Shown here in pieces: positions 20,912 through 39,552 of a DNA stretch of 41,055 bases. Positions within the stretch are counted from its first letter, which is position 1, and each line of letters starts with the position of its first letter. The notes below the pieces were generated by a model that ran no database searches, had not been told where the DNA came from, and worked only from the letters and a program-made list of their open reading frames with translations. Source of the DNA: a virus (Duplodnaviria; Heunggongvirae; Uroviricota; Caudoviricetes); IMG/VR virus record IMGVR_UViG_2529293142_000021, positions 1 through 41,055 of that record, one strand, 5' to 3'. A program made the translations under genes and the position numbers.

Positions 20912-21124
20912 ATGGAAATTTCGGAAATTAAATCCGCTCGCGATCGTGCGTTCGCCGCGTATCAGGATGCGCTGGAGGCGCAGAGCCTCGGCATGAAGGG
21001 GCGAACCCTGACGCGACAAAATATCAGCGCGCTGCGCTCAGAGTTTGAGTATTGGGATAAGCGCCTGTCTACCGCGACGCGCGGCGGCGGCCGTCAATTT
21101 TCTCTTGTCAGATTCAGGGAATAA
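20912..21124 (+). CDS. head-tail joining protein, gpW-like
   Basis: 70-aa ORF between terminase and portal, as lambda W. Confidence 0.5.
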   Translation: MEISEIKSARDRAFAAYQDALEAQSLGMKGRTLTRQNISALRSEFEYWDKRLSTATRGGGRQFSLVRFRE

Positions 21125-21126
21125 CA

Positions 21127-22665
21127 ATGGGTATTTTCAGCAGATTAACCACCGCGATCGCCCCCGTTACGTCGTTAAAACGAGCGCGGGCGCGCATTCA
21201 ACTGGACGCCATCAGGGCGTATGAGGCGGCTAAACCGTCACGTACACGAGCGACGAAACGCGAAACGCGCAGCGCAGACAATGCGGTTTTTGCCGCTGGT
21301 GTATCTCTGAGAGAGCAGGCGCGCTGGCTGGATGAAAACCACGACCTGGCGATCGGTGTGCTGGATAAACTGGAGGAACGCATTGTTGGCCCTCACGGCA
21401 TTCAGATTGAGCCGCAGCCGCTGACGCTGGCCGGAGACGTGCACGAGGATTTTGCAGCGCTGCTGGCGTCACGGTTCGCTAAATGGGCTGAAAACCCGGA
21501 CGTAACAGGAATGTTTACGCTGGCTGAGGCTGAGCGAATTTTACTGCGTTCGGCGTTGCGCGACGGCGAGGTGTTTATTCAGTTGCTGCGCGGTGCTGTC
21601 CCGGATCTGAAATACGACACGCCGGAACAATTCGCGCTCGAGCTACTCGAGGCCGATTTTGTGCCTATGTGGCCGTCTGGTGCCGACGGTTCAAACCGGA
21701 TTATTCAGGGTATTACGGTAAATCGCTGGGGCTGTCCTGTGGGTTACTGTGTTTATAAAAATCACCCTGGTGCAGGGTTCTCGACAGATACGCGCCAGAT
21801 CCCCGCAGAAAATATGCTGCACCTGGCTGTCCGTAAACGCCTGCACCAGGTGCGCGGCGTGTCGTTATTTCACGGCGTCATGTCGCGCCTGGGAGATTTG
21901 AAATCATATGAGGACGCCGAGCGCGTCGCGGCCCGCGTATCAGCAATGCTGGGTTTTTATATCAAACGTGGTGACGCGTCGGTGTACGGCGATGACGCCG
22001 ACTGGACGTCGCCAGATAACAGCTATCGGGATTTTGAGATGGCCCCCGGCATGATTTATGACCGGCTGGCACCGGGCGAGGAACTGCAAATGTTGAGCAG
22101 CGATCGCCCGAATCCTAATTTGATGGATTTTCGCAACGGGCAATTGCGTGCGCTGGCTGCTGGCGTGAGAACCGGTTATTCGTCAATTGCTCGCGACTAC
22201 AATGGCACCTACTCCGCGCAGCGCCAGGAATTGATTGAGGCGGGAGACGGTTACGCAGTAATGCAAAACTGGTTTATCTCCCGCGTAGTCCGCCCTGTAT
22301 ACCGGGAATGGCTGAAAATGTTTTTGTTATCCGGCGTCGAAGTGCCAGCTGACGTGGATCCGGAATCGCTGTTTGATGCCGTCTACATGGGGCCGGTTCT
22401 CCCCTGGATTGACCCGCAAAAAGAGAGCGAGGCATGGAAAGCTCAGATCCGTGGCGGAGCAGCTACGGAGGCCGAGTGGATACGAGCGCGCGGGCGGTCC
22501 CCACTGGCGGTCAAACTGCAACGCCGCCGCGAAATTAAATTTAATAAAACCGCTGGTCTGGTATTCGACACAGATCCGGCAAACGATAACGGGAGTCAGA
22601 GTAATGACGCAAAAAATGACGCTGGCACCGCGAGCCAGCGCCCCGGCGAGAACCGGGGCGGGTGA
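21127..22665 (+). CDS. portal protein, lambda gpB family
   Basis: 512-aa ORF after terminase and W-like gene; size and position fit a lambda-family portal. Confidence 0.8.
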   Translation: MGIFSRLTTAIAPVTSLKRARARIQLDAIRAYEAAKPSRTRATKRETRSADNAVFAAGVSLREQARWLDENHDLAIGVLDKLEERIVGPHGIQIEPQPLTLAGDVHEDFAALLASRFAKWAENPDVTGMFTLAEAERILLRSALRDGEVFIQLLRGAVPDLKYDTPEQFALELLEADFVPMWPSGADGSNRIIQGITVNRWGCPVGYCVYKNHPGAGFSTDTRQIPAENMLHLAVRKRLHQVRGVSLFHGVMSRLGDLKSYEDAERVAARVSAMLGFYIKRGDASVYGDDADWTSPDNSYRDFEMAPGMIYDRLAPGEELQMLSSDRPNPNLMDFRNGQLRALAAGVRTGYSSIARDYNGTYSAQRQELIEAGDGYAVMQNWFISRVVRPVYREWLKMFLLSGVEVPADVDPESLFDAVYMGPVLPWIDPQKESEAWKAQIRGGAATEAEWIRARGRSPLAVKLQRRREIKFNKTAGLVFDTDPANDNGSQSNDAKNDAGTASQRPGENRGG

Positions 22666-24685
22666 CGGCTGGTACGAGGTACGCGCGGCGGCCAACGGCG
22701 CACCGGCGGAAATCCTGATTTTTGAAGAGATCGGCGCGTGGGGTATTTCCGCGCGGCGACTCATTAATGATATTGCCGACGCTGATTTATTCAGCGCACC
22801 GGCGGTGGATATTCGTATTCACTCACCGGGCGGCAGCGTGCTGGACGGGTTCGCGATTTTTAACACACTGCGCCGCCTCACTGGCGTTGTGAATATTTAT
22901 ATCGACGGCCTGGCGGCCTCGATGGCGAGCGTGATCGCAATGTTGCCCGGCGCACAGGTGCACATCCCGGAAAATGCCTGGGTAATGATTCACAACCCGT
23001 GGGGCGGTGCGTGGGGCGATGCAGCCGAACTGCGCGAATACGCCGATCTGCTTGAGCGGCACGAAAAAAATATAGTTAACGCATATGTTAACAAAACAGG
23101 CATTGATGCGGAGGAGGTTAAAACGCTCATGTCTGCCGAAACCTGGCTAACCGGCGCGGAAGCGGTGGAAAAAAGGTTTGCTGATGTACTGGTGCCGGAG
23201 GTTGAAATGGCCGCCTGCATTAACGATAACGTAACAAAGGAGTTTTCACACATGCCGCAGGCAGCACAGAAATTTTTCAAACCGCGCGCAACTGGCACGC
23301 AACCACAACCGCAACCGGCGGCCCCGCAGCCTTCGCCACAGGCAACGCAACAACCGGCAGCGGCTCAACCAGCGGCACCGCAGCCAGCTGCGCAGGACGC
23401 TGCCGCGATTGCCACGCAGGCACTCGAAATGATGGCGGCGCGCGAAACCGCGCGTAAAGCGGCGGTATCGGCTGTTTTTACTAATTTTCCGGCGTTCGCA
23501 ACCCTGCAAAACACCTGCCTGACCGATACCACCTGCACTGATGCAGTGGCGCGTCAGCGCCTGCTGGATGCCCTCGCGCAGGGGGCTGCCCCCGCTGGTG
23601 GAGCGCATATTTACGCGGGTAACGGCAATCTGGTGGGGGATTCAATCAAAAACGTGATTATGTCCCGCGCTGGTTATGAGGAGCGCGAGGGGAGCAATAA
23701 CTACAGCGGCATGACGCTGGCAGAGCTGGCGCGCGCCTCGCTGGCCGATCGCGGTATCGGTATTTCCGGTGCAGGGCGAATGGAAATGATCGGGATGGCG
23801 TTTACTCATTCATCCAGCGATTTCGGCAATATTCTCATGGACGTTGCGCATAAATCGGCGTTGGCCGGTTGGGATGAGGCGGAAGAAACTTTTGATGTCT
23901 GGACCCGAAAAGGCGAACTGACCGACTTTAAAACCGCCAATCGCGTTGGCCTCGACTCGTTCCCGGCGCTGCGCGAGGTTCGCCCTGGTGCCGAGTACAA
24001 ATACGTTACGCTGGGTGATAGCGGCGCAACCATCGCGCTGGCAACCTATGGCGAGCTATTCAGCATTGACCGCCAGGCAATCATTAACGACGACCTGTCT
24101 ATGTTGACGCGTATCCCGCACGCAATGGGGACGGCGGCAAAGGCCACGATCGGCGATCTGGTTTACGCGTTGCTGTCCAGTAATCCGAAATTTGGGGATA
24201 AACCGTTATTCCATACCGATCACGGAAACTTCATTGACTCGCCGTTATCAGCAGCAGCGCTGGCAACGGGCCGCTCAATGATGAAAAAACAGAAAAACGG
24301 CAAACGGCATCTCAATATTCGCCCGGCGTTTTTGCTCGTATCAACCGCAAACGAGTCACTCGCGGATCAGATCATCAACTCCACGAGTGTTCCTGGCGCT
24401 GATAATAACTCTGGCATTTCGAACCCAGTACGCGGCATGGCGCAGATTGTTGCTGATCCGCGCATTGACGACGCGGGCGAGAAAAACTGGTATCTGGCAG
24501 CGGCACAGGGGCGCGACACGATCGAGGTTGCGTATCTCGACGGGAACGACGCGCCGGTTATTGAATCGACCAGCGGCTTTACTGTTGACGGCGTGACAAT
24601 GAAAGTGCGCATCGATGCGGGCGTATCCCCGATGGACTATCGCGGACTGCTGAAATCAACCGGCGACGGTCGCGAGGGCGAATAA
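22604..24685 (+). CDS. prohead protease (ClpP/S49-like) fused to major capsid protein
   Basis: Start taken at MTQKMTLAP (ORF track starts at 22373 inside the portal gene). N-terminal protease-like region, Pro/Gln/Ala-rich linker (PQPQPAAPQPSPQ...), C-terminal ~370-aa capsid-like domain; no separate capsid gene follows. Confidence 0.7.
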   Translation: MTQKMTLAPRASAPARTGAGDGWYEVRAAANGAPAEILIFEEIGAWGISARRLINDIADADLFSAPAVDIRIHSPGGSVLDGFAIFNTLRRLTGVVNIYIDGLAASMASVIAMLPGAQVHIPENAWVMIHNPWGGAWGDAAELREYADLLERHEKNIVNAYVNKTGIDAEEVKTLMSAETWLTGAEAVEKRFADVLVPEVEMAACINDNVTKEFSHMPQAAQKFFKPRATGTQPQPQPAAPQPSPQATQQPAAAQPAAPQPAAQDAAAIATQALEMMAARETARKAAVSAVFTNFPAFATLQNTCLTDTTCTDAVARQRLLDALAQGAAPAGGAHIYAGNGNLVGDSIKNVIMSRAGYEEREGSNNYSGMTLAELARASLADRGIGISGAGRMEMIGMAFTHSSSDFGNILMDVAHKSALAGWDEAEETFDVWTRKGELTDFKTANRVGLDSFPALREVRPGAEYKYVTLGDSGATIALATYGELFSIDRQAIINDDLSMLTRIPHAMGTAAKATIGDLVYALLSSNPKFGDKPLFHTDHGNFIDSPLSAAALATGRSMMKKQKNGKRHLNIRPAFLLVSTANESLADQIINSTSVPGADNNSGISNPVRGMAQIVADPRIDDAGEKNWYLAAAQGRDTIEVAYLDGNDAPVIESTSGFTVDGVTMKVRIDAGVSPMDYRGLLKSTGDGREGE

Positions 24686-26117: not shown

Positions 26118-26662
26118 GCGGAAAAATTAGCGGTATGGACGCGCTGGACGAATATACAAATAATGTTCACGCCGCGTTAATGCAAATCCCATTTATTAAA
26201 ACGGTAGGGATATACCCCGAGATACCGGACGGATTCATAACACCTGCAATTTTTTTCGAGGTTGAGAGCTGGTCGGCATCAAATGATGTAATCGCGGGAT
26301 CCGCGATGACGGTCGAATTAACCTGTAATTTATATCTGGTGCGTGAATATGCAGCGGACTTATACAGTCAAAAAGCGCGCAATGCCGCATTATTTGTGTC
26401 GGGCTGGATTAACGATCGTATATTTGGCCCCATGACGCGCCCCGCCGTATTTACTGACGCGCAGGAGGGGGACTGGCAAAAATCGGGTAAATCGGTGGCA
26501 TCGCATTCTGTCTGGTGCGTTTCATTTAAACAAAATGTTGGCGTAGGTGCCGATCCGTTCGATTACCCGTCAGACGGAATATTAAAGCAAGTATTCGTAG
26601 GGTTTGCGCCGGAAATAGGCGCTGAACACGAGAGTGATTATTATGGCCCAATCGGACGATGA
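26114..26662 (+). CDS. hypothetical tail-associated protein
   Basis: 182-aa ORF immediately upstream of the baseplate genes. Confidence 0.5.
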   Translation: MSGKISGMDALDEYTNNVHAALMQIPFIKTVGIYPEIPDGFITPAIFFEVESWSASNDVIAGSAMTVELTCNLYLVREYAADLYSQKARNAALFVSGWINDRIFGPMTRPAVFTDAQEGDWQKSGKSVASHSVWCVSFKQNVGVGADPFDYPSDGILKQVFVGFAPEIGAEHESDYYGPIGR

Positions 26663-27551
26663 CAGCGAATATACAACGGCGGAGAACGCCCGCAGGCAGC
26701 GTGACGCGATAAAACGCGGCACAATAGCTGAGGTGAAAATGTCCCCACCGCGCTGCCGTGTGTCGTTTGGCGGCGAGCATAAATCAGGCTGGCTACAGTG
26801 GTTCACTCACGCAACGTCAGAGCGCGTGGACTGGAGCGCCCCGTCGGTTGGCGACCCCGTTACTGTTATCTCAGAGAGCGGAGACACGCGCAACGGCGTG
26901 GCAATGCTGGGGCTGCACATTGACAATAAACCGCCGCCCAGTTCCGACCCGCACGACCACGTAACGGCATATTGCGACGGTGCAACGCTAACCTATAACA
27001 CGGAAAATCACACGCTAACCTGGCAGGGCGTACCCGACGGAATTGTAAAAATTCTCGGCGAGTCCAAAATAGAAATTTTGGGCCGCGCAGACGTCACGGT
27101 AACTAGCGAAAACGTGGTTAATATCCACGGTGGAAAATTAATTAACGCTGACGCAGAGGTTATAAACGTCACCGCTACGGACACGATTAACGCACACGCG
27201 GATCTGGTTAACGTTATTGCTACCAGCTCAGTGAGTGTCACTGCTGCAAATAGAATATCGCTGACAGCACAAACAATCAGCGCCTGGGCACCCGGAGGGA
27301 TTACCCTGGCGGGGCCAACGCATATCACCGAAACGCTGGTTGTTGATAAACTGGCGACATTCCGCAATGATGTTTCTGTTACGGGCGATAATGGCGGCAC
27401 GGGTAATATAACAACACGCGGCAGTGTGCTGGCAGGGCAAGAAGTTCAGGATCGTCAGGGCACAATAACTGAGGTTCGCACAACATATAACGGACACACG
27501 CACACATGCCCGGACGGCGAAACAGATAACCCCAATCAACCAATGGCGTAA
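26643..27551 (+). CDS. baseplate hub/spike protein, gpV-like
   Basis: Start at MAQSDDD; repetitive beta-helix-like segments and C-terminal GHTHTCPDGET as in P2 V / Mu gp45-type spikes. Confidence 0.75.
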   Translation: MAQSDDDSEYTTAENARRQRDAIKRGTIAEVKMSPPRCRVSFGGEHKSGWLQWFTHATSERVDWSAPSVGDPVTVISESGDTRNGVAMLGLHIDNKPPPSSDPHDHVTAYCDGATLTYNTENHTLTWQGVPDGIVKILGESKIEILGRADVTVTSENVVNIHGGKLINADAEVINVTATDTINAHADLVNVIATSSVSVTAANRISLTAQTISAWAPGGITLAGPTHITETLVVDKLATFRNDVSVTGDNGGTGNITTRGSVLAGQEVQDRQGTITEVRTTYNGHTHTCPDGETDNPNQPMA

Positions 27552-27558
27552 ATAAATT

Positions 27559-27900
27559 ATGCAGGGCATGAACCGTAGCGACGGAAAGTCGCTGGCGGGG
27601 ACCGATCATATCTGTCAATCAATAGTAGATATTTTAACAACGCCGTTCGGAACCCGCGTTATGCTGCCGGAATATGGCAGCAACATATTTGACCTAATAG
27701 ATAACCCGTCAGATCCGTCGCTAGCTATGCGCATTATTATGGCTACGGCTGGAGCGCTCGCAAAATGGGAACCGCGCATTCAGGTAGATAGCGTAAATGT
27801 GGCTGCAATTGATATTGGAAAAATAACAATATCAATTATTGCGACGGACGTCGAAACCCGAAATCGACTGGAATTTAAAAATATGGAGTTGATATATTGA
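27559..27900 (+). CDS. baseplate wedge protein, gpW/gp25-like
   Basis: 113 aa, size and position typical of P2 gpW. Confidence 0.75.
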   Translation: MQGMNRSDGKSLAGTDHICQSIVDILTTPFGTRVMLPEYGSNIFDLIDNPSDPSLAMRIIMATAGALAKWEPRIQVDSVNVAAIDIGKITISIIATDVETRNRLEFKNMELIY

Positions 27901-28817
27901 TAACATCAACTGTTCAAAACTCGATAGTAAAAACTATCGACATGAGTTTGCTACCCCCTCCCGATTTCGTTATAACCCCGCTATTTTCCGACGTGAAATC
28001 AGAATTATTAGCGGAATTACAGCAATTATATCCAGTATTTAACGCGCTGTTAGAGTCCGATCCGGCAGTAAAATTGCTGGAAATAGTCGCGTACTGGCGA
28101 ATAATAGTTACTGCGCGCGTCAATCAGGGTATGTTAGCCGTGTTGCTGGCGTTCGCTAAAAATAGCGATCTGGACCAGTTGGGCGCAAATTTCGATTGTG
28201 AGCGGCTGTTAATTACTCCGGCGAACCCCGACGCAATCCCGCCCGTTGAGGCTGTTTACGAGAGCGACGACGAATACCGGCACCGGATCCAGTTGTCGTG
28301 GTACGCGCGGAACACCGCAGGCAGCACTAACGCGTATAATTATTTCGCGCTATCCAGTGATCCGGACGTATTATCCGCGCAGGCGTATGGGCCGCCGGTT
28401 ACTCAGCCCGGTTACGTTGATGTTTACGTGTTATCGCGCACCGGCGACGGTGTGCCGCCGCAATCACTATTAAACACCGTCAATTCCGCACTATCACCGG
28501 ACGACGTACGCCCGCTAACTGATTTTGTGACCGTCAAACCAGCGGCAAACCTGAATTATCAAATCGAGGCTATTATTGTTGCCGGGCTGGGGCCGGATCA
28601 AAACGTGTTATTAAACGGCGCTCAGGCTGATTTAGAAACCTACGTTAAACAGCAACATAAAATAGGGGCGACGGCAGCATTATCCGGTATTTATGACTCG
28701 ATTCACCGCGACGGCACGGAACGAGTAATATTAACGTCACCCGCCGCCGACGTGATTGCAGGCGTGGGACAGGCTCCCTACTGCACTGGTATTAAACTCA
28801 GCGTGCAAATGGGGTGA
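27897..28817 (+). CDS. baseplate protein J-like
   Basis: 306-aa ORF following the W-like gene; e14 carries a homologous J-like remnant (jayE). Confidence 0.8.
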   Translation: MITSTVQNSIVKTIDMSLLPPPDFVITPLFSDVKSELLAELQQLYPVFNALLESDPAVKLLEIVAYWRIIVTARVNQGMLAVLLAFAKNSDLDQLGANFDCERLLITPANPDAIPPVEAVYESDDEYRHRIQLSWYARNTAGSTNAYNYFALSSDPDVLSAQAYGPPVTQPGYVDVYVLSRTGDGVPPQSLLNTVNSALSPDDVRPLTDFVTVKPAANLNYQIEAIIVAGLGPDQNVLLNGAQADLETYVKQQHKIGATAALSGIYDSIHRDGTERVILTSPAADVIAGVGQAPYCTGIKLSVQMG

Positions 28818-29446
28818 ATGTGACGAGTCAAAGCATATTACCCCCGAACGCAAACGCCGCAGAGCGGGCTTTAGAGGCGGTATTATCACACGCCGGAGAT
28901 TTACCCGCAGATATTCGCATTATCAAAAACCCTGATTTATGCCCGGTTGATTTATTACCCTGGCTGGCGTGGGAATACGCGGTCACGTACTGGAATCCGG
29001 ACTGGAGCGAACAACAAAAACGCGAAATTATTAAAGCCGCCGCCTGGCAAAACAAACACCGGGGTACGCGTGGTGCCGTAGAACGAGCGTTATTAACGGT
29101 AGGATTTGAGAGCAAAATGCGGGAGTGGTTTGAAGCCACCCCGAAAGATGATCCGTACACGTTCGCAATCAAAATATATTTGCTAAAAGGCATGGGGTTA
29201 GACCTTGACTTATTCAATACCTTTATTGCTCAAATATTCGATGCGAAAAACTGCCGCTCCCTACTTAAAGAAATTAATTTCGAAACGGGCGTTGATGGTG
29301 AGTTTTTTATAGCTGGTGCACCTTATGCAAAAATAGGCGTAAATATACCGGCAGACGGCGATGGCGGTGTAAAAATTAACGGCGGCCTATATATATCAGG
29401 CTCACCAATTGTTAGTTTAAATGTGGAGATAGGGCCAAATGGCTGA
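28814..29446 (+). CDS. tail protein I-like
   Basis: GTG start; conserved LLPWLAWEYAV motif typical of P2 gpI-family proteins. Confidence 0.7.
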   Translation: MNVTSQSILPPNANAAERALEAVLSHAGDLPADIRIIKNPDLCPVDLLPWLAWEYAVTYWNPDWSEQQKREIIKAAAWQNKHRGTRGAVERALLTVGFESKMREWFEATPKDDPYTFAIKIYLLKGMGLDLDLFNTFIAQIFDAKNCRSLLKEINFETGVDGEFFIAGAPYAKIGVNIPADGDGGVKINGGLYISGSPIVSLNVEIGPNG

Positions 29447-30562
29447 AAATAAAATTTACGCTGTGTTAACTGACCGTGGCGCGCAGTTAGAAGCCGCCGC
29501 GCTGGCGTCAGGCGTTCCAGTGGTGCTGAACAAATTTGTTATCGGCGACGCGAACGGAAACGATGACGTAACACCGGATCCGGCGCGTACTGCATTAGTT
29601 CACGAGACGTATCGCGGGGATATTAAATCCGCAGAAAATAGCGGTAACCAGGTTATTTTTACGCTATACGTACCACCGGAAACTGGCGGTTATACTATCC
29701 GTGAGGTGGGAATATTAACCGATAAAGGCGAACTGTACTCAGTTGCACGTTCACCGGATATTTTAAAACCTACGGACAGTAACGGCGCACTGATTTCAAT
29801 CACGTATAAATACACCCTCGCGGTGTCCAGCACATCTACAGTTAATGTTGTGGTATACGACAACTACGTAACTCCCGAGGTAGCTGACAAAAAATATTTG
29901 CAGATAAGCAAAAATTTATCTGAAATTGCCGCTAATGGTGGTTCTGCTCAGCAGGCTGCGCGGAAAAATATTGGTATAGATGGGGACGTTGCATATAGAG
30001 ATAAGGGTAATACATTTACAACTCAAAACACCTTTAAAGACGACGTTTTTTTTGAAGACATTTTGATTTCTAAAAAACAAATAAACATAAATAAACCAGA
30101 TACCAACTTAACATTATTTTCACTTGCGGGCTGGTCAGATGTGAACGGTGATTATTTAGAAGTGTCGACGCGGGGGAAAATAATCAAAACGTTTTTTATA
30201 GATTACGCGGGGTTCACTATGATGGTCTGGTGTTACTGTGCGGCGGGCAGACGTATAAATATTGGAATGAGGGAAATCTTAAACCGGTTAAAACGATTAA
30301 CGGGAAGTCGCCAGATGCTAACGGGAACGTCGCAATAACCGTAAGCAGCTCGGGGATACAGAACGTTCAACTTGGCGCAGAGGTTGCCCACACACCGGCG
30401 GGTAATGAGGTTACGTGGGACTTTAAATGTCCGACCGGCTGTGTTCTTACTGGGATATATGTTCAGGAAACCGGCGACAGCTCAGCTGATAATATCGGCG
30501 GTGTTTATTATAAACCGATCCAAAAATACATTAATAATGTATGGACTACGATTTCCGGATGA
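29439..30562 (+). CDS. tail fiber protein, apparent frameshift
   Basis: N-terminal conserved tail-fiber region (MAENKIYAVLTDRGAQLEAA...); receptor-binding C-terminus (KTINGKSPDANGNVAIT...) continues in another frame from about 30172-30180 (G5/A4 run); split into 29439-30338 and 30230-30562. Confidence 0.7.
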
Positions 30563-30565
30563 GTT

Positions 30566-31143
30566 ATGCAAAATTTAAAATCATTTAAGCTTGTAAAACC
30601 TAAAACGAAATTACTTAAACTTAGCGAGTCTGACGGACAAAATATTTTATATCTTCAGTCCGAAGACGGCATGGATTGGTATGAATGCCAGTCACTGTAT
30701 CGCGATGACACAGTAAAAATAATGTACGACAAAGAAAACATTATTCGATCAGTTGTTGATCGCCCGGTCCCGGAGCGAGGAAATACCTATTCTGTGAGCA
30801 TGTTTTTCCCGATTGATATGAGTGTTGCGGAGGTTGAGTTGAGCACCTATCCTGCTGAGCTAACTCTCGACGGATCGTGGAAATTTGTTGACGGTGATGT
30901 ATATCAAGATGAGCAAATTGTAAATGAGCGTATTTACAAAGAAAACTCCAAAAAATTAATGAATTAGTCCGAGAGGCTCAGTCAGCAATTCTAAATTTAC
31001 AAACAGCCATAGAGATTGATATGTCATCAGATGGTGATGAGGAAAAGCTAATAGAATGGCGACGCTACCTGTGCGAGCTGAATAAAATAACAGCCACGGA
31101 TCTAAGTCAGTCCCCACTTAACACTCCTTTACGACCAGCATAA
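30566..31143 (+). CDS. tail fiber assembly chaperone, apparent frameshift
   Basis: ORF 30566-30967 ends just after an A6 run (30950-30955); the conserved Tfa-like C-terminus (...KLIEWRRYLCELNKI...) continues in another frame to the stop at 31141-31143. Confidence 0.6.
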
Positions 31144-31155
31144 ATAGGGTACCTA

Positions 31156-32667
31156 ATGAGCACTAATTTTTTACACGGTATTCGCACACTCGAATACGAC
31201 GACGGCACAAAAGAGATCAACACGGTCGATATTTCAGTTATCGGGATTGTTGGTACTGCACCGGATTCTGCCGGGGCAGCAGACGCGGAATTAATAACCG
31301 GGAGCGAGATTCTAAAAAACCGAGTTAAATTTACTGCAACAAATCAGGGTGCGCGCGGTAATTCATGGAGCGTGGAAATTATCGCGAGCGAGACAGAGGG
31401 TGGAAATTCACTGTGGCGGGATATGCCCGACGGCAGTCGGAGATTAACTATATATGTTTCTGCACCCTCTGGACTACACAGCTACACACCGGACGAAATT
31501 GTTCAGAACGTCACGATCCCAAACCCTCCCTCTGATCAGATATTTTTAACTGTCACCGCGGTGGACACAGGGTCGACCGCAGGAGCTGTGACTGCCTCAC
31601 CGTTGCAATATTTAAGCGGCGGCAGTGATGAGGCATACCCAATTAATACCCCCGCACTGATTGCTGGAAGTCCAAAAAAAGCCGCTTTATTAGGTGAACG
31701 CGGCACGTTGCCGAAAGATATTGCCGATATTTTCAATCAGGACAACGCCTTGCTTGTTGTTGTGCGAGTAAAAGATGACAAAGACGCAACAAAACAACAG
31801 CAAAATATTATCGACGGTGTCAAACAACTGGAAAAATCGAAACAGTTAACAGGAGTCACGCCGCGTATTATTATTGCACCAGATTTTAGCGCGATTGATA
31901 CAGTTGCTGCCCAGGTTGAGGCGACGGCAACTAAATTGCGTGGCGTGGGCTATATCGACTCACCGACAGCCGCAACGGCGGAGGATGTAGTGAGACGCCG
32001 CCAGAGCTATGGCGCTCGCGTTGAAATCCTGCGACCGCGCATTTTCACTACCAGCGATATAACCGGCGCATCGCGCGCATATTCGGCGACGGCAGCTGGG
32101 TTACGTGCGCGTATTGATAACGACGGTAAACACGGTTTCTGGTGGAGTAAATCAAATCAAAACATTTACGGCGTAACTGGCGTCGAACAGATTGATGATT
32201 TTATTATCGGCGAAACCAATTGCACGGCTAATCTGTTAAACGCCGAACAGGTCAGCACAATTATTCGTTACGACGGGTTCAGACACTGGGGTAACTATCT
32301 GTGCAGCCTGGATCCGCAGTGGTCGTTTGAATGCGTTCGTCGAACAGCTGACGTAATTGAGGATTCGATCGCCATCGCAATGATGAATGATTTCATCGAC
32401 CGTCCGATCGATGTTCATCTCGGCGGGGACATCATCGAAACAATTAATGCGTATATTCGCAAACTATACGAAATGGGCGCTATTAACGGTGGTCGAGCGT
32501 GGCTTGATAGTGAGCTGAATACGAAAGAAAGTTTCGCCGCCGGGAAAATTTATATTAACGTTGAATTTGCACCCAAATCACCCGCACAAACCATCACGAT
32601 TACGTACCGTATTAATAACGATTACACCGTCGATGAATTTTCTTCATTGCTGAAACAGGCCGCATAA
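31156..32667 (+). CDS. contractile tail sheath protein
   Basis: 503-aa ORF immediately upstream of the tube gene, P2 FI-like. Confidence 0.8.
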   Translation: MSTNFLHGIRTLEYDDGTKEINTVDISVIGIVGTAPDSAGAADAELITGSEILKNRVKFTATNQGARGNSWSVEIIASETEGGNSLWRDMPDGSRRLTIYVSAPSGLHSYTPDEIVQNVTIPNPPSDQIFLTVTAVDTGSTAGAVTASPLQYLSGGSDEAYPINTPALIAGSPKKAALLGERGTLPKDIADIFNQDNALLVVVRVKDDKDATKQQQNIIDGVKQLEKSKQLTGVTPRIIIAPDFSAIDTVAAQVEATATKLRGVGYIDSPTAATAEDVVRRRQSYGARVEILRPRIFTTSDITGASRAYSATAAGLRARIDNDGKHGFWWSKSNQNIYGVTGVEQIDDFIIGETNCTANLLNAEQVSTIIRYDGFRHWGNYLCSLDPQWSFECVRRTADVIEDSIAIAMMNDFIDRPIDVHLGGDIIETINAYIRKLYEMGAINGGRAWLDSELNTKESFAAGKIYINVEFAPKSPAQTITITYRINNDYTVDEFSSLLKQAA

Positions 32668-32681
32668 CATAGGGGTTAAAT

Positions 32682-33194
32682 ATGTCCAGAGGTAGCGTTT
32701 ATCGCGCGTTTACACTGTGGGTACAGGGTGAGCGTATTTGCAATTGCACCGAATATACCCCGGTTGATATGAAATTAATTGAGGATGATTTTAAAACCGG
32801 TGCGATGGATCAGGGCATTACACTCGACGGCGGCATGGAAAAAATGGCCGCTAGTTTTAAAGTCACCGGGTCAGATACTGATGTTATGGCTTATTTTGGG
32901 ATTATCCCCGGTGCAAAAACTCGTTTCGAAATTCGCGCCGCATATACTGATAACTACGGCATTAGTTTTGAACGCATTGATATATACGAAGGGTTGATTA
33001 CTGCAATTACCGATGACGCGATGGGGACTGACTCAAAAGCCGCAGTCGGTAGCACTGTTAATATCGCCCCGAGTTATTATAAGCGCACTCAAAATAGTAA
33101 ATTAATTTATGAATTGCATCCAGCAAAACTGAAACGCGTTATTAATGGCGTTGATGTTCTTGCGGGTGTTGCAAGTATTCTCCACGTATATTAA
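32682..33194 (+). CDS. tail tube protein
   Basis: 170-aa ORF following the sheath gene. Confidence 0.75.
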   Translation: MSRGSVYRAFTLWVQGERICNCTEYTPVDMKLIEDDFKTGAMDQGITLDGGMEKMAASFKVTGSDTDVMAYFGIIPGAKTRFEIRAAYTDNYGISFERIDIYEGLITAITDDAMGTDSKAAVGSTVNIAPSYYKRTQNSKLIYELHPAKLKRVINGVDVLAGVASILHVY

Positions 33195-33207
33195 TCAGGA
33201 AATAAAA

Positions 33208-33492
33208 ATGGAATCATTATTAGACAGCATGACGGTAACATTATCGCGTCCGTTCGAAATTAACGGCGTAACCGTTGAAACAATCACAGTGCGCGAGCCT
33301 AAGCTCCGCGATCGCATCTTGTTTAGCAAAGATAAGGGCGATGCAGAGGAAAAAACTGCGCGTATGCTGGCACGGCTGGCTAATCTTAACATTGAGGATA
33401 TTTACTCCCTTCCTTCCTGTGATTATATGAAAATGGAGGAAGCATTTAACGAACTGGTAAAGATCCCGACCGACCGGAAGCAGATATTATAA
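33208..33492 (+). CDS. tail assembly chaperone, gpE-like
   Basis: Start at MESLLDS with AGGA RBS; small gene between tube and tape-measure genes. Confidence 0.5.
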   Translation: MESLLDSMTVTLSRPFEINGVTVETITVREPKLRDRILFSKDKGDAEEKTARMLARLANLNIEDIYSLPSCDYMKMEEAFNELVKIPTDRKQIL

Positions 33493-33597
33493 TCCTGCTC
33501 CCGTATATAGCTAAAAAGCTGGCTATTCCTCCCGATACGCAACTAAATATGCCGTATCGGGTTTTTAATTTCTACGTAACAGAGCTAATGAAAAAAG

Positions 33598-35225
33598 ATG
33601 GCTGCTACACAGGAATTTAAAACAAAAGTTGTATTTGGGGGCCGCATAGACCCCTCTTTTAAGCGCAGCGCCGACGAACTGGACGGCGCTATAAAGCAGA
33701 CGGGTAACACCGTTTCAACGTTAACACGTAAACAGGAGAAATTAAAAGACCAGATCAAAAAAACCGAGCTTGCGGGCAAAAGTACTAAAAGTCTGGTTCA
33801 CGAATATCAAAAAGTCGGGCGTGAAATTAATATCGTTACGAAAGATCTTGAGCAATTAAATAAACAGTTAGCAAAAAAACAGCGAATTGAAAACATTGGC
33901 AGCAAAATAAAGGGCGCTGCGAAATGGGGCGGTAGAGCTGCGCTCGGCACCGCAAAAGCCGTCGGCAGCGGCGTTAAATGGGGCGCGCTTGGCGGGATTG
34001 GGCTAATTGGTGCCGCCGGAGCTGGTGCCGCCGCAATGAATGCTGAAACCGCCGAAAAATTAGGGCTGGCCCGGTCCTACGGTGTAGGAATCGAAAAATA
34101 TGCGGCGTGGGATAACGTCGGTAAAATGGCTGGCCTCAACGGTGAAAACGTTGGTGATTTATCCGAGGAATTAACAAATAAATTGGGTGAGGTCGGCAAC
34201 GAAAAAAACCTTAACCCGATGCTGTTCCAGATCGGTCTTACCAAAAAAAGGATGCAGAGCTGGGATCGGGAAAAACAATTTAACGAGGTAATGAGTCGTC
34301 TTTCGAAAATGAAAGACGAAAAACAGGCCGCAAGTCTCGCCGACCAATTAATGGGCGGTGAGGCAAATAAAATAATGACGTATATGAGGATTACTGGCAA
34401 AACATGGGAGCAGACCATGGAAGACGCCAAAAAATCCAATTTATTAACGCAGGAGGGCGCGGAGGGAGCCGCCCGCGCGCATTTCTCATTAACTAATTTA
34501 TGGGGTTCTATTTCCTCGGGATTTGCCGACACGCTCGGGAAAATTGGTGGGAAACTGGCCCCGACATTTGACTCGATGCGCGAGGGATTTACATCATGGT
34601 TTAAAGACAATCAAGGGACTATTGTTAATACTGTAAAAGAGTGGGTGAAACCGGAGAACATGAAAAAGCTGTGGGATGGCATAGTTAATTTCGGCGAGGG
34701 CTGCGTAAAATTCGGTAAAATAATATGGGTGGTGGTAAAAAAATTAGAGTGGTTAATTCCGGACGAAAAGACCGAAGAAGAAGAAAAAGTATATAAAGAA
34801 GAATACGCAAAAGCGTATCAAGAATTCATGGACTCGGGCGGAAAATATTCACCGAACGCTGGCCTGGCTGCTGATAATGTTGCACAAGCTAAAGCAAAAG
34901 AAGCCGTCGATAATATGCGTCATCCGGAGCGTAAAAAAATGCCGAGGCGATCATGTCGCTGGCTAATCCATTTGTTGAGGCACAAAAAGCGGCGGCGGCC
35001 CCTGATTCACTGCAAAATGCAACTATAAATATGGATGCGCTAAAACAAGCCGTGGCGCAACCAGCGCCGCAACAAAATAATAAAATTGAGGTTAATATTA
35101 TGGCGGCTGGTGACCCTCAATCTATCCAGGCGGCGGCGGCGTCAGGGGTATTAGACGGAATAAGACAGGCCGCGCCATCTGGCGGTCGCGGATCAATGAT
35201 GGACAGACCAGTGGCGGCGGGGTAA
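33598..35225 (+). CDS. tail tape measure protein, apparent frameshift
   Basis: Coiled-coil N-terminus and Gly/Ala-rich segments typical of tape measure proteins; reading frame changes at an A7 run (34933-34939); split into 33598-35028 and 34953-35225. Confidence 0.7.
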
Positions 35226-35229
35226 ATAA

Positions 35230-35640
35230 ATGAACGACGCACAGGATATAATGCTCGGCCTGGGTGATTTTATTTTTGCTATATCAACAGTCGCCTACAA
35301 TAAATTACAGCGTAGTGATTCATGGCGCTGGGCTGAACAAACCAGATTCAGGAAAAATGACGCGTTGCAAATGACGGGCCGCCCGAACCCAACAATCACT
35401 ATAGACGGTAAAATAAATGCCTTATTTTTAGACGGTTGCGGGATTGGGTTATTATCAGATTTGCGCGCCCTGGGTAATGAGGGCAACCCCCAGCAGCTGG
35501 TGCTGGGGACTGGTAAAGTCATGGGCTATTGGGTTATTAAAGACCTGAATGAAACGCAAAATAGTTTCTTTATGGGCGGCACCCCAAAAACGCAGGATTT
35601 TACGTTAACCCTGCAATATTATGGCGCTTCATTAGACTGA
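35230..35640 (+). CDS. tail protein U-like
   Basis: 136-aa ORF after the tape measure gene, as P2 U. Confidence 0.7.
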   Translation: MNDAQDIMLGLGDFIFAISTVAYNKLQRSDSWRWAEQTRFRKNDALQMTGRPNPTITIDGKINALFLDGCGIGLLSDLRALGNEGNPQQLVLGTGKVMGYWVIKDLNETQNSFFMGGTPKTQDFTLTLQYYGASLD

Positions 35641-35861
35641 ATATCTTTTGGCTTTTTATCGCCGAAAGCGGCCCATAATATTAATATAATCCACATCAGG
35701 AATATCCAGCCAAAAAGAACATTTAATATTACTACCATGGTGCAGCTTTTATGCCCTCTCATTAACGCAATGATTAGCGGAATAACATATAAAATAATGG
35801 ACGCCAATGGGTTAGCCATGAGCCAGATATACAGGGCTACAATCCATGTGAAAATTTCCAT
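35619..35861 (-). CDS. small inner-membrane protein, Imm-like
   Basis: 80 aa from MEIFTWIVALYIWLMANPLASIILYVIPLIIALMRGHKSCTMVVILNVLFGWIFLMWIILILWAAFGDKK; two predicted TM helices; AT-rich; antisense to all surrounding tail genes. The resemblance to T4 Imm-type proteins is from memory. Confidence 0.5.
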   Translation of the reverse strand: MEIFTWIVALYIWLMANPLASIILYVIPLIIALMRGHKSCTMVVILNVLFGWIFLMWIILILWAAFGDKKPKDIQSNEAP

Positions 35862-35879
35862 ACTTGGAACCTCATTATT

Positions 35880-36095
35880 ATGACAATCACATATACGACG
35901 CGAGACGGAGATCGGCTCGATCAAATATGCCTCGCGGTTTACGGGCGAACCCGCGTTACTACAGAGACTGTTTTATATCAGGTTTCAAACTACGGCGTAA
36001 CAGATATGTGCGCTGTGTTCCCTGCCGGGCAGATCATCACATTGCCGGAAATAGAGCCTGAACCGATTAAAAAAGAAACTCAATTATGGGACTGA
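35880..36095 (+). CDS. tail protein X-like
   Basis: 71-aa ORF directly upstream of the gpD-like gene. Confidence 0.55.
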   Translation: MTITYTTRDGDRLDQICLAVYGRTRVTTETVLYQVSNYGVTDMCAVFPAGQIITLPEIEPEPIKKETQLWD

Positions 36096-36098
36096 TGA

Positions 36099-37142
36099 AT
36101 GGGTGATTACACTAACACTGGCGTTGAGGCGTGGAAGCCTAATTTTTACATAGCTGCGGATGATGTAAATATTACAGAAAAAATCAGAAAAGGGCTTATT
36201 AATATCACCCTTACCGACTACGGCGGATCGAGTAAACAAACCGACGAAATACGCGTCGCTATCGTATCAGAAACGCTGAAAATCCCCGCGCGCGGCGTAA
36301 AAATAACGCTGGGGCTGGGGTTCGGTAATCAGATTATTGATAAAGGCGTTTACGTCGTTGATGGTGCCAGCAGTGGTGGCGAACCGCGCGTTGTTGATTT
36401 CACCGCAAAAGCCGCCCCCATGAACGCTGCAAAAGGCGCGAAAACGGTACAGAGCAAAAAAACGCGGTCCTGGATTGATCAAACCGTGGGCGATATTGTC
36501 GCAAAAATTGCGAGCGACAACGGTCTGAATCCACGCGTTTCAACCCGGTTTGCAGATACAAAAATCGAGCATATCGACCAGATCGGCGAGTCTGATATGC
36601 ATTTTATGTCACGCCTGGCAACCCGGTTTGATGCGGTCAGTAAGCCCGCTGGCGGATACTGGATATTTTTACCGCGCGGTAAAGGTGAATCAGTCAGCGG
36701 CGCACCGCTGCAACACTATACGTTAAAACGCGCTGGTAACTCGAGCTGGGGTTACTCAAGAAACGGGCAGAGCGGTGACAGCGGCGGCGGCGGTGAAAAC
36801 CCCGAACCCACATATCTGATTAAATATCACGACACGGCGACCGGGCAGATCAAAGAACTGCGGACCGGCAGCGGCGGCGATCCGGTTATCGAGTGGCCCG
36901 CGGTCGAGCCGTCGCTCGACGCAGCAAAAGAAGCGGCACCAGGGCTGAAAGGCGGTGCCGCTAAAAAAGAATTTTCAATGACATACTCATGCCCGGCAAC
37001 GCTGGATTTAATCGCGCTGACGGCGGAATGCAAGGTAACGACAGAGGGTTTTGGCAGCGAGGAAGATCGGGAGTGGACGATTAACACGCTATCCCTGACG
37101 CTGGCTGAGAACGGTTTTTCTGTTCGTATATCTATGGAGTGA
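36099..37142 (+). CDS. tail protein D-like
   Basis: 347-aa ORF with Gly-rich loop, at the end of the tail operon. Confidence 0.75.
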   Translation: MGDYTNTGVEAWKPNFYIAADDVNITEKIRKGLINITLTDYGGSSKQTDEIRVAIVSETLKIPARGVKITLGLGFGNQIIDKGVYVVDGASSGGEPRVVDFTAKAAPMNAAKGAKTVQSKKTRSWIDQTVGDIVAKIASDNGLNPRVSTRFADTKIEHIDQIGESDMHFMSRLATRFDAVSKPAGGYWIFLPRGKGESVSGAPLQHYTLKRAGNSSWGYSRNGQSGDSGGGGENPEPTYLIKYHDTATGQIKELRTGSGGDPVIEWPAVEPSLDAAKEAAPGLKGGAAKKEFSMTYSCPATLDLIALTAECKVTTEGFGSEEDREWTINTLSLTLAENGFSVRISME

Positions 37143-38977
37143 TCGCAGTGGCAAAAATATCAGGGGTGTACGCAAACGGACTCGGCGAGCCGGTGCCGGG
37201 TATCAATTTAGTGTTAACGGCTCGCGCAACCAGTTCCGGCGTGATAATGACAACGACGGCAGCGCAGCAAACTGGCGCGGGCGGTGAGTACTGTTTTGAA
37301 CTCCAGCCGGGTGTTTACGTAGTCACCGCCAGTGGTGCGTATCTCGGCGTGATTACCGTTAACCCGGATAGCGTCGACGGCACGTTAAACGCGTATTTGA
37401 CAAATTTCAGCGCGGACGAAATGACGCCAGCGGCGCTGGCGGAGGTTCAGGAGCTCGTTGCCACAGCACAAGCCGCCGCCAGTGTTGCCAGCGGTGCCGC
37501 AACGGAAGCCAGGCAGAATGCCGCCGCCGCTGCTGCTGCTGCGCAGATTTCGACGGCAGCGGCAGGTAGCGCCCGATTTGAGAATTTTGACGAAATTATA
37601 AATATTAATACAACAGCAATGCTGGAGCTGGAAAAGCCGGAGGTGTTAGATCCGGATATTACTATAACTATCACAGAGACGATTAATTATGACTACGTTG
37701 GTCCGGTAAACGGATTTTGCGACGTTGCCAGCCCGCTTGAATATAAAATTCAAATGTACGCCTACACAACAGGCGAATATTTTAACGGCGAAACAAATTT
37801 AACGGCAGACGGTAAGTTTTATTTTAAGCGATCATGGGCCGGTGCAAAACAATTCAGGTTGGTGCGCATAGCAGATAGTAAATGGATCACTACGCTGGAA
37901 TATCCATTGTGTATTAGAAGCTACTGGATGCCCGATGATGCCGATCCTGCGGTCGTCAAAACAATGAAAGATCGTTGCTATACATATGATCAAGCGGTCG
38001 CCGCCATGGCATTAATGGTCCAGCAGCATGACGCGGTGGAACGCTACGTCGCCGGGTTATGCGCGCTGGTAGAAGACGCTGGCGGGGTTAAATTTTACGT
38101 TAACAGGCTATCAGCTCAATCGCACCGAGCTTATTACAGGATGGGTAACGTGGCCTGGGTTTTATATGCTCTCGCATTCTATCTGCATAAATTCCCCACT
38201 GGTGACCAGGTTGCTACTGTTCGTGAGAAAATAGCGGCTGGATGCACTTGGGTTGATACGTTCAGAGTTATCACCCCCGGAGATCCGCGCGAGGGGCTAT
38301 ATATGGGGGGGAGTGGTAAATTTTACGACGGCGGCACCGTTTTTGATCCGGACTATATAGCAACGTGGTGCGCACTTGAGCATAACGTTGATATTTATTT
38401 TCTGTTCGAACTACTGGGCAGAATATCGGGATTCGAGAGTTACAAAAGCAAGGCGGCAGATCTGGCCGCCGATATTATTGAAAAATTCTGGATTGAGAGC
38501 GAAGGGCGTTTTCGCCAAGGGGTGCACGAAGACGCCCCGGACAACGTTGCTGCGTTAGATCAATCGAGTTGGGGCGGGATTTTTGCTGCACACGTTGATC
38601 CTGACAAGGCCGTGAGGTGCAGGAAATACATGGAAAGATTTAGATACGGCACACAGGAATGCGCTGGATATACGCCATATGATCTTGACCAGGGGTATTC
38701 CACACAAAAACGCGGCGTGTGGTGCGAGGGGGTGGGTGGTGTCGCGCTATTTGAGCGCCTGCTCGGTAATGAGGAACGCGCAATTGAATTGATAGCAGGA
38801 ATGACCCCACTCAGAAACAAATACGGGTATCGCGATTCATGCATGGATCCAACATACGACACGCTGCCAAATTGGCCCTCAACGACAAACACCGGCTGGA
38901 TGATTTTATGTTGTCAGCCCAGTGGTTTTTGGAACGTAAACGCCCCAAAACTAAGCATTGGGATCGTGAGATATTGA
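37139..38977 (+). CDS. tail fiber or tailspike with possible enzymatic C-terminal domain
   Basis: 612 aa; N-terminal about 100 aa resembles prophage tail-fibre N-terminal domains, then Ala-rich coiled segment, then a Trp/Tyr-rich helical C-terminal domain of about 400 aa. Confidence 0.55.
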   Translation: MIAVAKISGVYANGLGEPVPGINLVLTARATSSGVIMTTTAAQQTGAGGEYCFELQPGVYVVTASGAYLGVITVNPDSVDGTLNAYLTNFSADEMTPAALAEVQELVATAQAAASVASGAATEARQNAAAAAAAAQISTAAAGSARFENFDEIININTTAMLELEKPEVLDPDITITITETINYDYVGPVNGFCDVASPLEYKIQMYAYTTGEYFNGETNLTADGKFYFKRSWAGAKQFRLVRIADSKWITTLEYPLCIRSYWMPDDADPAVVKTMKDRCYTYDQAVAAMALMVQQHDAVERYVAGLCALVEDAGGVKFYVNRLSAQSHRAYYRMGNVAWVLYALAFYLHKFPTGDQVATVREKIAAGCTWVDTFRVITPGDPREGLYMGGSGKFYDGGTVFDPDYIATWCALEHNVDIYFLFELLGRISGFESYKSKAADLAADIIEKFWIESEGRFRQGVHEDAPDNVAALDQSSWGGIFAAHVDPDKAVRCRKYMERFRYGTQECAGYTPYDLDQGYSTQKRGVWCEGVGGVALFERLLGNEERAIELIAGMTPLRNKYGYRDSCMDPTYDTLPNWPSTTNTGWMILCCQPSGFWNVNAPKLSIGIVRY

Positions 38978-39040: not shown

Positions 39041-39067
39041 AAAAAAACCAGCCGTAACAGGCTGGTT
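39041..39067 (-). terminator. rho-independent terminator, minus strand
   Basis: Minus-strand ACCAGCC tgttac GGCTGGT followed by TTTTTTT, directly 3' of the tRNA-like fragment. Confidence 0.5.
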
Positions 39068-39080
39068 CTTAAGGTGTTTT

Positions 39081-39133
39081 TGGTCGGCACGAGAGGATTT
39101 GAACCTCCGACCCCCGACACCCCATGACGGTGC
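39081..39133 (-). other. tRNA 3'-half fragment (anticodon arm CAU, T-arm, acceptor 3' strand, CCA)
   Basis: Minus strand reads GCACC GTCATGG GGTGT ... GGAGG TTCAAAT CCTCT CGTGCCG A CCA. No complementary 5' acceptor strand or D-arm upstream, so not a complete tRNA. Confidence 0.4.
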
Positions 39134-39300
39134 GGGGCGTTCGGTGTTTGCATTTTGCAATTTTGCGAAAATGTAAATTAATTGTATTAATGCGTCATTA
39201 TCTGCAGATTTATAAGCCTGCCCCGATGAAAAAGCGGTTATCAAAACTCAAAAAGAGTTATCGCAAAACAAGCACTTGCAAACCATCTCAAATGATGTGA

Positions 39301-39364: not shown

Positions 39365-39529
39365 CTGTTACGCCATATGGGCTGGACTGAAGCCGCAGAC
39401 CTGATTGTTAAAGGTATGGAAGGCGCAATCAATGCGAAGACCGTAACCTATGACTTCGAGCGTCTGATGGAAGGCGCTAAACTGCTGAAATGTTCAGAAT
39501 TTGGTGATGCGATCATCAAGAACATGTAA
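39365..39529 (+). pseudogene. icd: 3'-terminal fragment of isocitrate dehydrogenase gene (icdC-like)
   Basis: Translates to [53 protein letters not shown], which is the Icd C-terminus; no upstream icd sequence. Typical of e14-type integration at icd. Confidence 0.85.
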
Positions 39530-39552
39530 TCACTACATGTGTTTAATATTGC

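Follow-up and report, generated by a model that had tools for sequence, protein, structure and literature searches.

We analysed 41,055 nucleotides (nt) of viral DNA, IMG/VR record IMGVR_UViG_2529293142_000021 (the window), and describe here the gene content, gene order, homologies and frameshifts of the element that it holds, together with their distribution among further copies. The window is a nearly complete lambdoid prophage of ~40 kb in the 3′ end of Escherichia coli icd, plus the right host flank. Its late region (18307-38977) carries the packaging, head and tail genes that are the main subject of this work.

The right end of the prophage, attR, is the displaced icd 3′ end (the icdC equivalent; about 39365..39530, plus strand), a stretch that is labelled icd in the records of phage 21 and of lambdoid phages. 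It is followed by iraM (39632-39955, minus strand) and ycgX (40651-41055, minus strand), in the same icdC-iraM-ycgX order as in K-12. In blastn searches, the attR flank is 95% identical to K-12 icdC/iraM/ycgX and 85% identical to icd, and many E. coli chromosomes match the right flank at 99.5-99.9% identity; an Rfam scan of the attR region gave sub-threshold matches only. The left end of the window is a gene for a DUF7424 protein (1-696), in the cargo position between icd and int. In contigs of sibling copies, icd lies ~240 bp past this gene and is preceded by rluE, nudJ, mnmA, hflD and purB. Host genes thus flank the element on both sides (icd to the left; an icdC-like remnant, iraM and ycgX to the right), which places it exactly at the e14 site, and its length is ~40 kb. 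The DUF7424 gene occupies the slot where e14 has ymfD, ymfE and lit.

Exact-protein look-ups recovered 13 loci with the same prophage (the siblings), at 99.87-99.98% nt identity. The portal gene occurs in 172 index blocks (draft assemblies and public runs), yet a near-full copy of the prophage is present in none of 5,426 complete RefSeq E. coli genomes (megablast, both window halves). The best match in these genomes covers 46% of the late region at 80.5% identity (GF43), and the early region is matched by short pieces only.

Packaging and head genes

The late region is tightly packed, with gaps of at most 39 bp except for a 105-bp stretch and a 239-bp gap occupied by a gene on the minus strand (both described below). 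Its first seven genes, all on the plus strand, encode packaging and head proteins. The small terminase subunit is of the DUF1441 type (18307..18825; PF07278, 1.7e-46; phrog_141, 3.8e-65) and is 70% identical at the amino acid (aa) level to that of Citrobacter phage Chris1; it has no Pfam Nu1-family match and no tblastn match to lambda. The terminase large subunit (TerL; 18825..20902) belongs to the lambda gpA family (PF05876/PF20454; GpA_ATPase, 1.8e-70) and is 23% identical to lambda A. It is present as two open reading frames (ORFs), 18825-20558 and 20513-20902, with the GpA_nuclease domain divided between them. An in-frame 15-bp indel in this gene (19718-19732) is found in the window and in loci L032 and L033, not in L029, L030, L031 or L034.

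The TerL gene is followed by a gene for a gpW-like head-tail adaptor (20912..21124; phrog_118, 3.5e-12), which has no match in a Pfam scan and whose positional equivalent in Hafnia phage yong2 is annotated as W. The portal protein (21127..22665; PF05136, 3.9e-90) is of the lambda family; it is 58-60% identical to the portals of yong2 and Chris1, 51-52% identical to those of the lambdoid siphophages mEp460, cdtI and Stx2 phages, and 22% identical to lambda B. Downstream lie a fused ClpP-type prohead protease/scaffold/major capsid gene (22604..24685; CLP_protease, 3.4e-26; Phage_capsid_4, 2.7e-53; phrog_133, 1.4e-255), a cement/decoration gene (24725-25051; Phage_cement_2, 2.8e-27; phrog_122) and a gene for an FII-like head-closure protein (25051-25401; Phage_attach, 5.2e-12; phrog_82), the last head gene. 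The probable start of the fusion is the ATG at 22604; siblings call a protein of 693 aa, and the identity to Chris1 and yong2 is 56-57%. Neither tblastn nor Pfam gave a match to lambda C, D, E or FI among the window proteins. The lambda-family members of the head are TerL, the W-like protein, the portal and the FII-like protein; the protease and capsid are not of this family.

A P2-type tail with an additional fibre gene

Tail genes begin at 25435 and, with one exception, lie on the plus strand. The first encodes a tail completion/Neck1 protein (25435-26117), present as two ORFs that match phrog_27 positions 3-110 and 122-198; Neck1 is a single ORF of 226-227 aa in the related GF43 prophage and in all siblings. 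A gene for a phrog_1072 protein follows (26114-26662). The baseplate genes come next: the V spike (26643-27551; Phage_base_V, 6.8e-12; 34% aa identity to P2 V), the W/gp25 protein (27559-27900; GPW_gp25, 2.9e-17; 42% to P2 W), J (27897-28817; Baseplate_J, 2.4e-23; 42% to P2 J) and I (28814-29446; Tail_P2_I, 6e-39; 32% to P2 I). The V-W-J-I proteins are 73-91% identical to those of the GF43 prophage. They are followed by a P2 H-type tail-collar fibre gene (29439..30562; Phage_tail_fib, 1.7e-30), which is a single ORF of 374 aa in GF43, and by a gene for a tail fibre assembly protein of the P2 G/Tfa type (30566..31143), whose match to Caudo_TAP is weak and which is 95% identical, in two frames, to the 192-aa Tfa of GF43.

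The second half of the tail block starts with the sheath (31156-32667; Phage_sheath_1/1C, 2e-14), which is 35% identical to P2 FI and 45-46% identical to the sheaths of Chris1 and yong2, and continues with the tube (32682-33194; Phage_tube, 6.2e-19) and the tail assembly chaperone E (33208-33492; Phage_TAC_7, 2.8e-18). After E, the -1 frame (E′) is open at 33450-33620 and overlaps the start of the tape-measure gene, an arrangement like P2 E/E′/T, and we infer that E′ is reached by a frameshift; the 105-bp stretch mentioned above belongs to E′. The tape-measure gene (33598..35225; phrog_3654, 1.8e-199) is 76% and 61% identical to the GF43 protein in two frames, and encodes 542 aa in most siblings. 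It is followed by the gene for a P2 gpU-like protein (35230..35640; PF06995, 3.4e-32; 37% to P2 U), tail protein X (35880-36095; PF05489, 1.1e-14; 40% to P2 X) and a gpD-like baseplate hub (36099-37142; PF05954 (GPD), 1.1e-09; 33% to P2 D).

Two genes of this block had gone unmentioned in a preliminary description of the window. The first, on the minus strand within the 239-bp gap between U and X, belongs to the superinfection-immunity family (35619..35861; PF14373, 1.6e-11); it encodes 80 aa, is called in all siblings and has its own terminator-like hairpin (35615-35591). The second is a further fibre gene with a lambda-Stf-type N-terminal domain (37148..38977; phage_tail_N, 3.3e-23; phrog_13714, 1.3e-208). 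This second fibre is 31% identical to the N-terminus of lambda Stf over 20% of its length and 77% identical to a GF43 homologue at the same position after D; Chris1 and yong2 are without it. No chaperone gene is found 3′ of the second fibre in the window; GF43 has a 139-aa ORF there without a counterpart in the window.

In tblastn searches against P2, ten proteins match, at 32-42% aa identity (V, W, J, I, the H N-terminus, G, FI, U, X and D), and nothing else does; specifically, tblastn of the window ORFs against P2 found none of its head (Q, P, O, N, M, L), replication or regulatory genes. Likewise, P2 Q, P and N used as queries in a panel search gave no match in the related loci searched, in a database that held those loci and not the window itself. 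Against lambda, the matches are A (23%), B (22%) and the Stf N-terminal domain only. A Mu-like tail was also considered and rejected, the matches to Mu being limited to the fibre tip (C-terminus) and Tfa.

The preliminary description had read the range 26643-38977 as a mosaic virion module, in which a lambda-like packaging and head set with a Nu1/A-like terminase is joined to a P2/Mu-like contractile tail. The mosaic reading itself is borne out: the listed gene types are present in the order given, with strong Pfam matches far above chance, and in one late block, packaging, portal and connector genes of the lambda family are joined to a contractile tail in P2 order. Several particulars require revision. 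The range contains the tail, from V to the last fibre, while packaging and head lie at 18307-25401. The terminase is A-like, as proposed, and its small subunit is of the DUF1441/phrog_141 type rather than Nu1. The head is lambda-like for A, W-like, B and FII-like proteins and not for protease and capsid, which are represented by the ClpP-capsid fusion, with Phage_cement_2. The tail is P2-like in identity and order, and Mu-like in the fibre tip and Tfa only.

The head/tail joint

Identity to GF43-type prophages rises from 34% in the FII-like protein to 66% in Neck1, which places a recombination joint at ~25401-25435, between the last head gene and the first tail gene. The same tail (V ~90%) on a canonical lambda head in Escherichia contigs likewise shows that the FII/Neck1 boundary is a point of recombination, and, as judged by these comparisons, the module joint is there. 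The tail module is common in Escherichia (V ~90%, J ~89%) and usually stands on a canonical lambda head, the head type having been read where upstream sequence was recovered, namely in GF43 (L002), E. whittamii (L007) and IMG/VR loci among L008-L022. A scan of genome contigs with the V protein returned one locus, in E. whittamii, and says nothing on distribution. Exactly at the joint (25400-25422) stands a GC-rich hairpin with a T8 tract after it (T9 in siblings); it may be an internal terminator that is read through under Q, or a recombination landmark.

Alternatively, the window could contain two adjacent elements, a lambdoid prophage and a P2-like remnant or tailocin cluster. Head and tail do differ in their closest relatives and in GC content (~0.55-0.58 in the head, 0.40-0.52 in the tail), and the terminator-like hairpin stands at the joint. 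However, the FII-like and Neck1 genes are only 33 bp apart, the window has no second integrase, the joint has no whole tRNA or att duplication, and there is no P2 head, replication or regulatory gene. The same contiguous layout is moreover found in many viral contigs and in two complete genomes of phage isolates, Chris1 and yong2. We regard an origin from two neighbouring elements as highly improbable and treat the late block as one chimeric module.

Two frameshifts fixed in the lineage and five homopolymer contractions

Relative to intact homologues, the genes for TerL, Neck1, the H fibre, Tfa and the tape measure are frameshifted in the window, and Q is shortened. These lesions are of two kinds. 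The TerL gene carries a 1-nt deletion at ~20487, in the nuclease domain and outside any homopolymer, that changes the frame relative to Chris1, yong2 and the IMG/VR contig L023, and the H-fibre gene carries a 1-nt deletion in a G/A run at ~30172-30181, recognised by nucleotide alignment to four homologues. Both deletions are identical in all siblings that cover the sites (6/6), and we therefore consider them real and fixed in the lineage. Where the two TerL frames overlap (97 nt), no slippery site was seen by which -1 frameshifting might rescue the protein.

The remaining lesions are contractions of A/T runs. Neck1 is split in the window only, by a change from A8 to A7 at 25816-25822, and so is the tape measure, by a change from A8 to A7 at 34933-34939. 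The Tfa frameshift lies at a poly-A run (30950-30955) that has A6, A7 or A8 among the copies, the contraction being present also in two siblings. The Q antiterminator (14560..15240, plus strand; Pfam Antiterm, 2.3e-25) has 226 aa in the window versus 246 aa in siblings, its C-terminus being shortened by a change from A8 to A7 at 15189-15195 (A8 in siblings). In total, the window has five 1-nt contractions of A/T runs, at 15188 (Q), 25414 (intergenic), 25815 (Neck1), 30949 (Tfa) and 34932 (tape measure). All or most siblings lack them, and hardly any substitutions are private to the window; together, this points to homopolymer undercalling in the window assembly, and the breaks in Q, Neck1, Tfa and the tape measure look like sequencing errors.

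One might ascribe every frameshift to sequencing or assembly and regard the prophage as fully functional. Five contractions of 7-9 nt A/T runs with almost no private substitutions form a pattern typical of homopolymer undercalls, and the remainder of the element is intact and tightly packed. However, the TerL deletion lies outside any homopolymer, and each independent assembly examined, among them Logan assemblies of the public runs SRR12852216 and SRR18965778, shows both this deletion and the one in the H fibre; the homologues in Chris1, yong2, L023 and GF43 are in frame. We consider a fully functional prophage unlikely. The lineage is instead probably a recently inactivated cryptic prophage that is non-infectious, being without DNA packaging or the primary fibre.

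Relation to e14 and SfV

The preliminary description had taken the window for an almost complete representative of the lineage that gave rise to e14, on the basis of A-like, B-like and J-like remnants in K-12 e14 at the same locus. Such remnants exist, annotated as aaaE, beeE and jayE, and the locus agrees (icd, icdC, iraM, ycgX); the families do not. Specifically, e14 YmfN/aaaE is a TerL_ATPase/TerL_nuclease protein (PF03354/PF20441) and not gpA, BeeE is a portal of the HK97 type (PF04860) and not of the lambda family, and YmfQ is Mu gp48 and not P2 I. The e14 remnants are 92-99% identical to SfV proteins (terminase 96%, gp47-like 97%, gp48-like 98%), with 99.6% for the repressor YmfK, and e14 morphogenesis genes have been grouped with those of SfV/SfI (PMC3636060).

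A search of the window with the virion, immunity and replication proteins of e14 gave no tblastn match at E<=0.01, except for an O-like N-terminus; the next best value was E=0.018. The exception concerns the first 82 aa of the window O-like protein, which are 56% identical to the oweE part of e14 YmfN. In particular, the Mu-type baseplate proteins JayE (gp47) and YmfQ (gp48) have no match in the window at E<=0.01, where Tail_P2_I is found, and the e14/SfV immunity region YmfK/YmfT/YmfL has no tblastn match there better than E=0.018. SfV virion genes likewise do not match the window virion genes in tblastn. Whole-element blastn to e14 aligns int-xis (69% nt identity) and the host flanks only.

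The idea that the window represents a near full-length phage of the lineage that decayed into e14, whose A-, B- and J-like remnants would then descend from genes such as those seen here, draws on real similarities. The insertion site and orientation are the same, identity is 79% in Int, 67% in Xis and 56% over the initial 82 aa of the O-like protein, and both elements are lambdoid with a J-family baseplate gene of a contractile tail. These similarities do not extend to the virion: PF03354/PF20441, PF04860 and Mu gp48 in e14 stand against PF05876/PF20454, PF05136 and Tail_P2_I in the window, e14 virion and immunity proteins are 92-99% identical to those of SfV and find nothing better than E=0.018 here, and the nucleotide alignment stops at int-xis and the host flanks. 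In addition, the integration module is itself exchangeable, as recorded by a fossil attP (see below). We hold descent of e14 from such a phage to be very unlikely. For the virion module, the proposal is refuted by the alignment to e14, which showed no virion relation; what the two elements have in common is confined to Int, Xis, the O-like N-terminus and the icd site. The corresponding alignment to P2 matched the tail genes, and those alone. Judged by family membership and identity, the window virion module is not of e14/SfV descent, and the common part is an icd-specific integration module.

Integration module, fossil attP and early region

The lambda-type integrase gene (740-1867, minus strand; Pfam Arm-DNA-bind_1, Phage_integrase) overlaps the excisionase gene (1848-2117, minus strand; Pfam Exc). 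Int is 79% identical to IntE and Xis 67% identical to XisE, and Int-Xis is the sole module that is clearly common to the window and e14.

At the opposite end of the element, a stretch of the minus strand (39081..39134) is identical to positions 24-77 of K-12 proL, i.e. to the 3′ 54 nt of tRNA-Pro(GGG). It lies ~100 bp past the last fibre gene and ~230 bp from the icd attR, is preceded by a hairpin and T-run at ~39041-39080 (read by eye), and is homologous to the attP region directly upstream of int in Escherichia phage Flotzy. ARAGORN found no whole tRNA in the window. From its position and homology, we take this stretch to be the fossil attP of an ancestor that integrated at proL. A fossil proL attP beside the icd attR implies that the e14-like integration module replaced an earlier one, and thus suggests that the present module was swapped in.

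The early organisation is lambdoid, with int-xis, repressor, replication, RusA, Q and lysis genes 5′ of the terminase. Specifically, this region encodes CI-like repressor, Cro/YdaS-like, O-like, PAPS-reductase-like, KilA-N and RusA proteins, a fused C5-methylase/Dam, Q and the lysis proteins. The PAPS-reductase-domain protein (7088-8407; 439 aa) is encoded 3′ of a DUF1627 protein gene, and the C5-cytosine methyltransferase fused to a Dam-type N6-adenine methyltransferase is a single ORF of 635 aa (12656-14563), the Dam part of which is 65% identical to the SfV dam region. A small minus-strand ORF (3492-3695) has a sibling equivalent annotated as KilR family (PF27398); a Pfam scan of the 86-aa window ORF gave no match.

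Discussion

We consider it highly likely that the element is a cryptic lambdoid prophage at icd that carries a chimera of a lambda-family head and a P2-type tail, with a virion unrelated to e14/SfV, an integration module acquired by exchange and two fixed deletions. Several points weigh against this interpretation. Both the particle morphology and the defectiveness are read from sequence. The TerL and H-fibre sites are covered by six siblings only, the seven further loci consisting of the right part, while more than 160 index blocks hold proteins of the element, so that copies of this very prophage without the lesions could exist elsewhere. The split terminase may still be functional, and a canonical slippery heptamer X_XXY_YYZ for E/E′ was not found when the codons were read through. 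Finally, the assignment of the sibling assemblies to an E. coli host is deduced from the 99.5-99.9% identity of the flank.

Promoter-like sites are not enriched in the late region (27, versus 28.8 in shuffled sequence), so no internal late promoters of the P2 style can be claimed. We infer that the late block is a single Q-antiterminated transcript under lambdoid control, unlike the Ogr-dependent operons of P2. In the head pathway, the DUF1441-type small terminase and gpA-family TerL would package DNA into a prohead that is set on the lambda-family portal and built by the self-processing ClpP-protease/scaffold/capsid fusion; the cement protein would stabilise the prohead, and the gpW-like and FII-like connectors would close the head. 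The tail would be assembled by the P2 route, with D, U, X and the V spike forming the hub and W, J and I the wedge. H with its chaperone G would provide the fibre, and the tape measure would act with the E/E′ chaperones, to be followed by tube, sheath and neck proteins. The predicted particle is contractile-tailed and, given the TerL and H-fibre lesions, would not be expected to form in a complete, infectious state in the present lineage.

The fixed lesions hit TerL and the H fibre, while the other tail genes of the siblings, including the second fibre, are intact (~13 copies), and this pattern raises the question of whether the lineage might be moving from a phage to a producer of tail-only, tailocin-like particles. 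We consider such a transition distinctly unlikely. Were it true, an E. coli clone would be retaining a P2-type baseplate armed by an Stf-type fibre as a weapon against competitors and not as a means of infection. The preferred reading remains that of a recently inactivated prophage.

The FII/Neck1 joint is a clean case of modular exchange, in which, in Escherichia, one P2-type tail is combined with two different sets of lambda-family head genes. Integration and virion modules are exchanged independently, one exchange of the former being recorded by the fossil proL attP, and a shared icd site with an e14-like integrase does not make the element a full-length e14. For annotation, the value of the analysis lies in separating two real inactivating lesions from homopolymer artefacts. 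The architecture is already known from isolated phages and published chimeras, and its general significance is modest; the fossil attP that records an integrase swap and the P2-type tail with an additional Stf-type fibre gene are two modest side points.

Comparison with known systems

The genome order of the window is lambda-like (int-xis, repressor, O-like, RusA, Q, lysis, terminase, head, tail). Unlike lambda, it has no Nu1-family small terminase and no C/Nu3/D/E, and its contractile tail is not of the Z-U-V-G-T-H-M-L-K-I-J type. The tail keeps the P2 order, V-W-J-I-H-G followed by FI-FII-E(E′)-T-U-D, that is, two P2 operons end to end, except that X lies between U and D, whereas it follows L in P2. 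Further differences from P2 (Peduoviridae) are the absence of gaps between the tail operons able to hold Ogr-type promoters, a longer sheath (503 aa versus 396 aa) and lambdoid regulation (CI/Cro/Q). e14 resembles the window in its icd insertion and its related Int and Xis, and e14, SfV and SfI are all lambdoid with contractile tails, but the TerL, portal, protease and capsid of e14 and SfV are of the HK97 type, and their tail is of the Mu type (sheath ... gp45-48).

The overall design is shared with Chris1 (ON041214) and yong2 (MZ516527), in which both the head and the tail type are found in one genome of 39-45 kb. These phages are lambdoid and temperate, share the DUF1441-type small terminase, gpA-family TerL, W, portal, ClpP-capsid, cement and FII-like genes, and have a P2-type contractile tail with U-X-D; aa identities are 30-79% across the virion genes, with 76-79% in TerL and 29-51% in all tail genes other than the sheath. 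They differ in tail gene order, V-FI-FII-E-T-U-X-D-W-J-I-H-G against V-W-J-I-H-G-FI-FII-E-T-U-X-D in the window, the FI...D block being inserted between V and W. They also lack an Stf-type second fibre after D and differ in integration site and cargo, and their TerL and fibre genes are intact. The head, tail and gene order of the window recur in the IMG/VR contig L023, together with an intact TerL of 694 aa.

GF43-type prophages (NZ_CP172127 at zinT; E. whittamii; IMG/VR loci among L008-L022; partial records such as vB_EcoM-720R5) carry the tail of the window in the same order, with an Stf-type fibre after D, at 61-99% aa identity from Neck1 onward. Their head, in contrast, is that of canonical lambda (A, W, B, S49 protease C, D, E, FI), with TerL and portal only 23-28% identical to those of the window, and their insertion site differs. 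Searches of the open-access literature returned no account of virion architecture or morphology for yong2, Chris1 or vB_EcoM-720R5, and papers on temperate coliphages and on Salmonella phages do not deal with a chimera of this type.

Chimeras of lambda and P2 have been published for Wolbachia WO and Xylella XfP1/XfP2, in which a lambda-like terminase, portal and minor capsid are combined with a P2-like baseplate and tail (PMC3235987). WO records are among the sheath and portal matches of the window; WO and XfP1/XfP2 differ from the window in having distant hosts, low identity (sheath 39% over 64% of its length) and unrelated non-virion genes. Three genomic features of this class are present in the window, namely a gpA-family TerL and lambda-family portal, a P2-type block from baseplate to D contiguous with the head genes, and a lambdoid early and regulatory layout, and the window is a member of the known class of lambda/P2-chimeric temperate elements that includes Chris1, yong2, the GF43-type prophages and WO.

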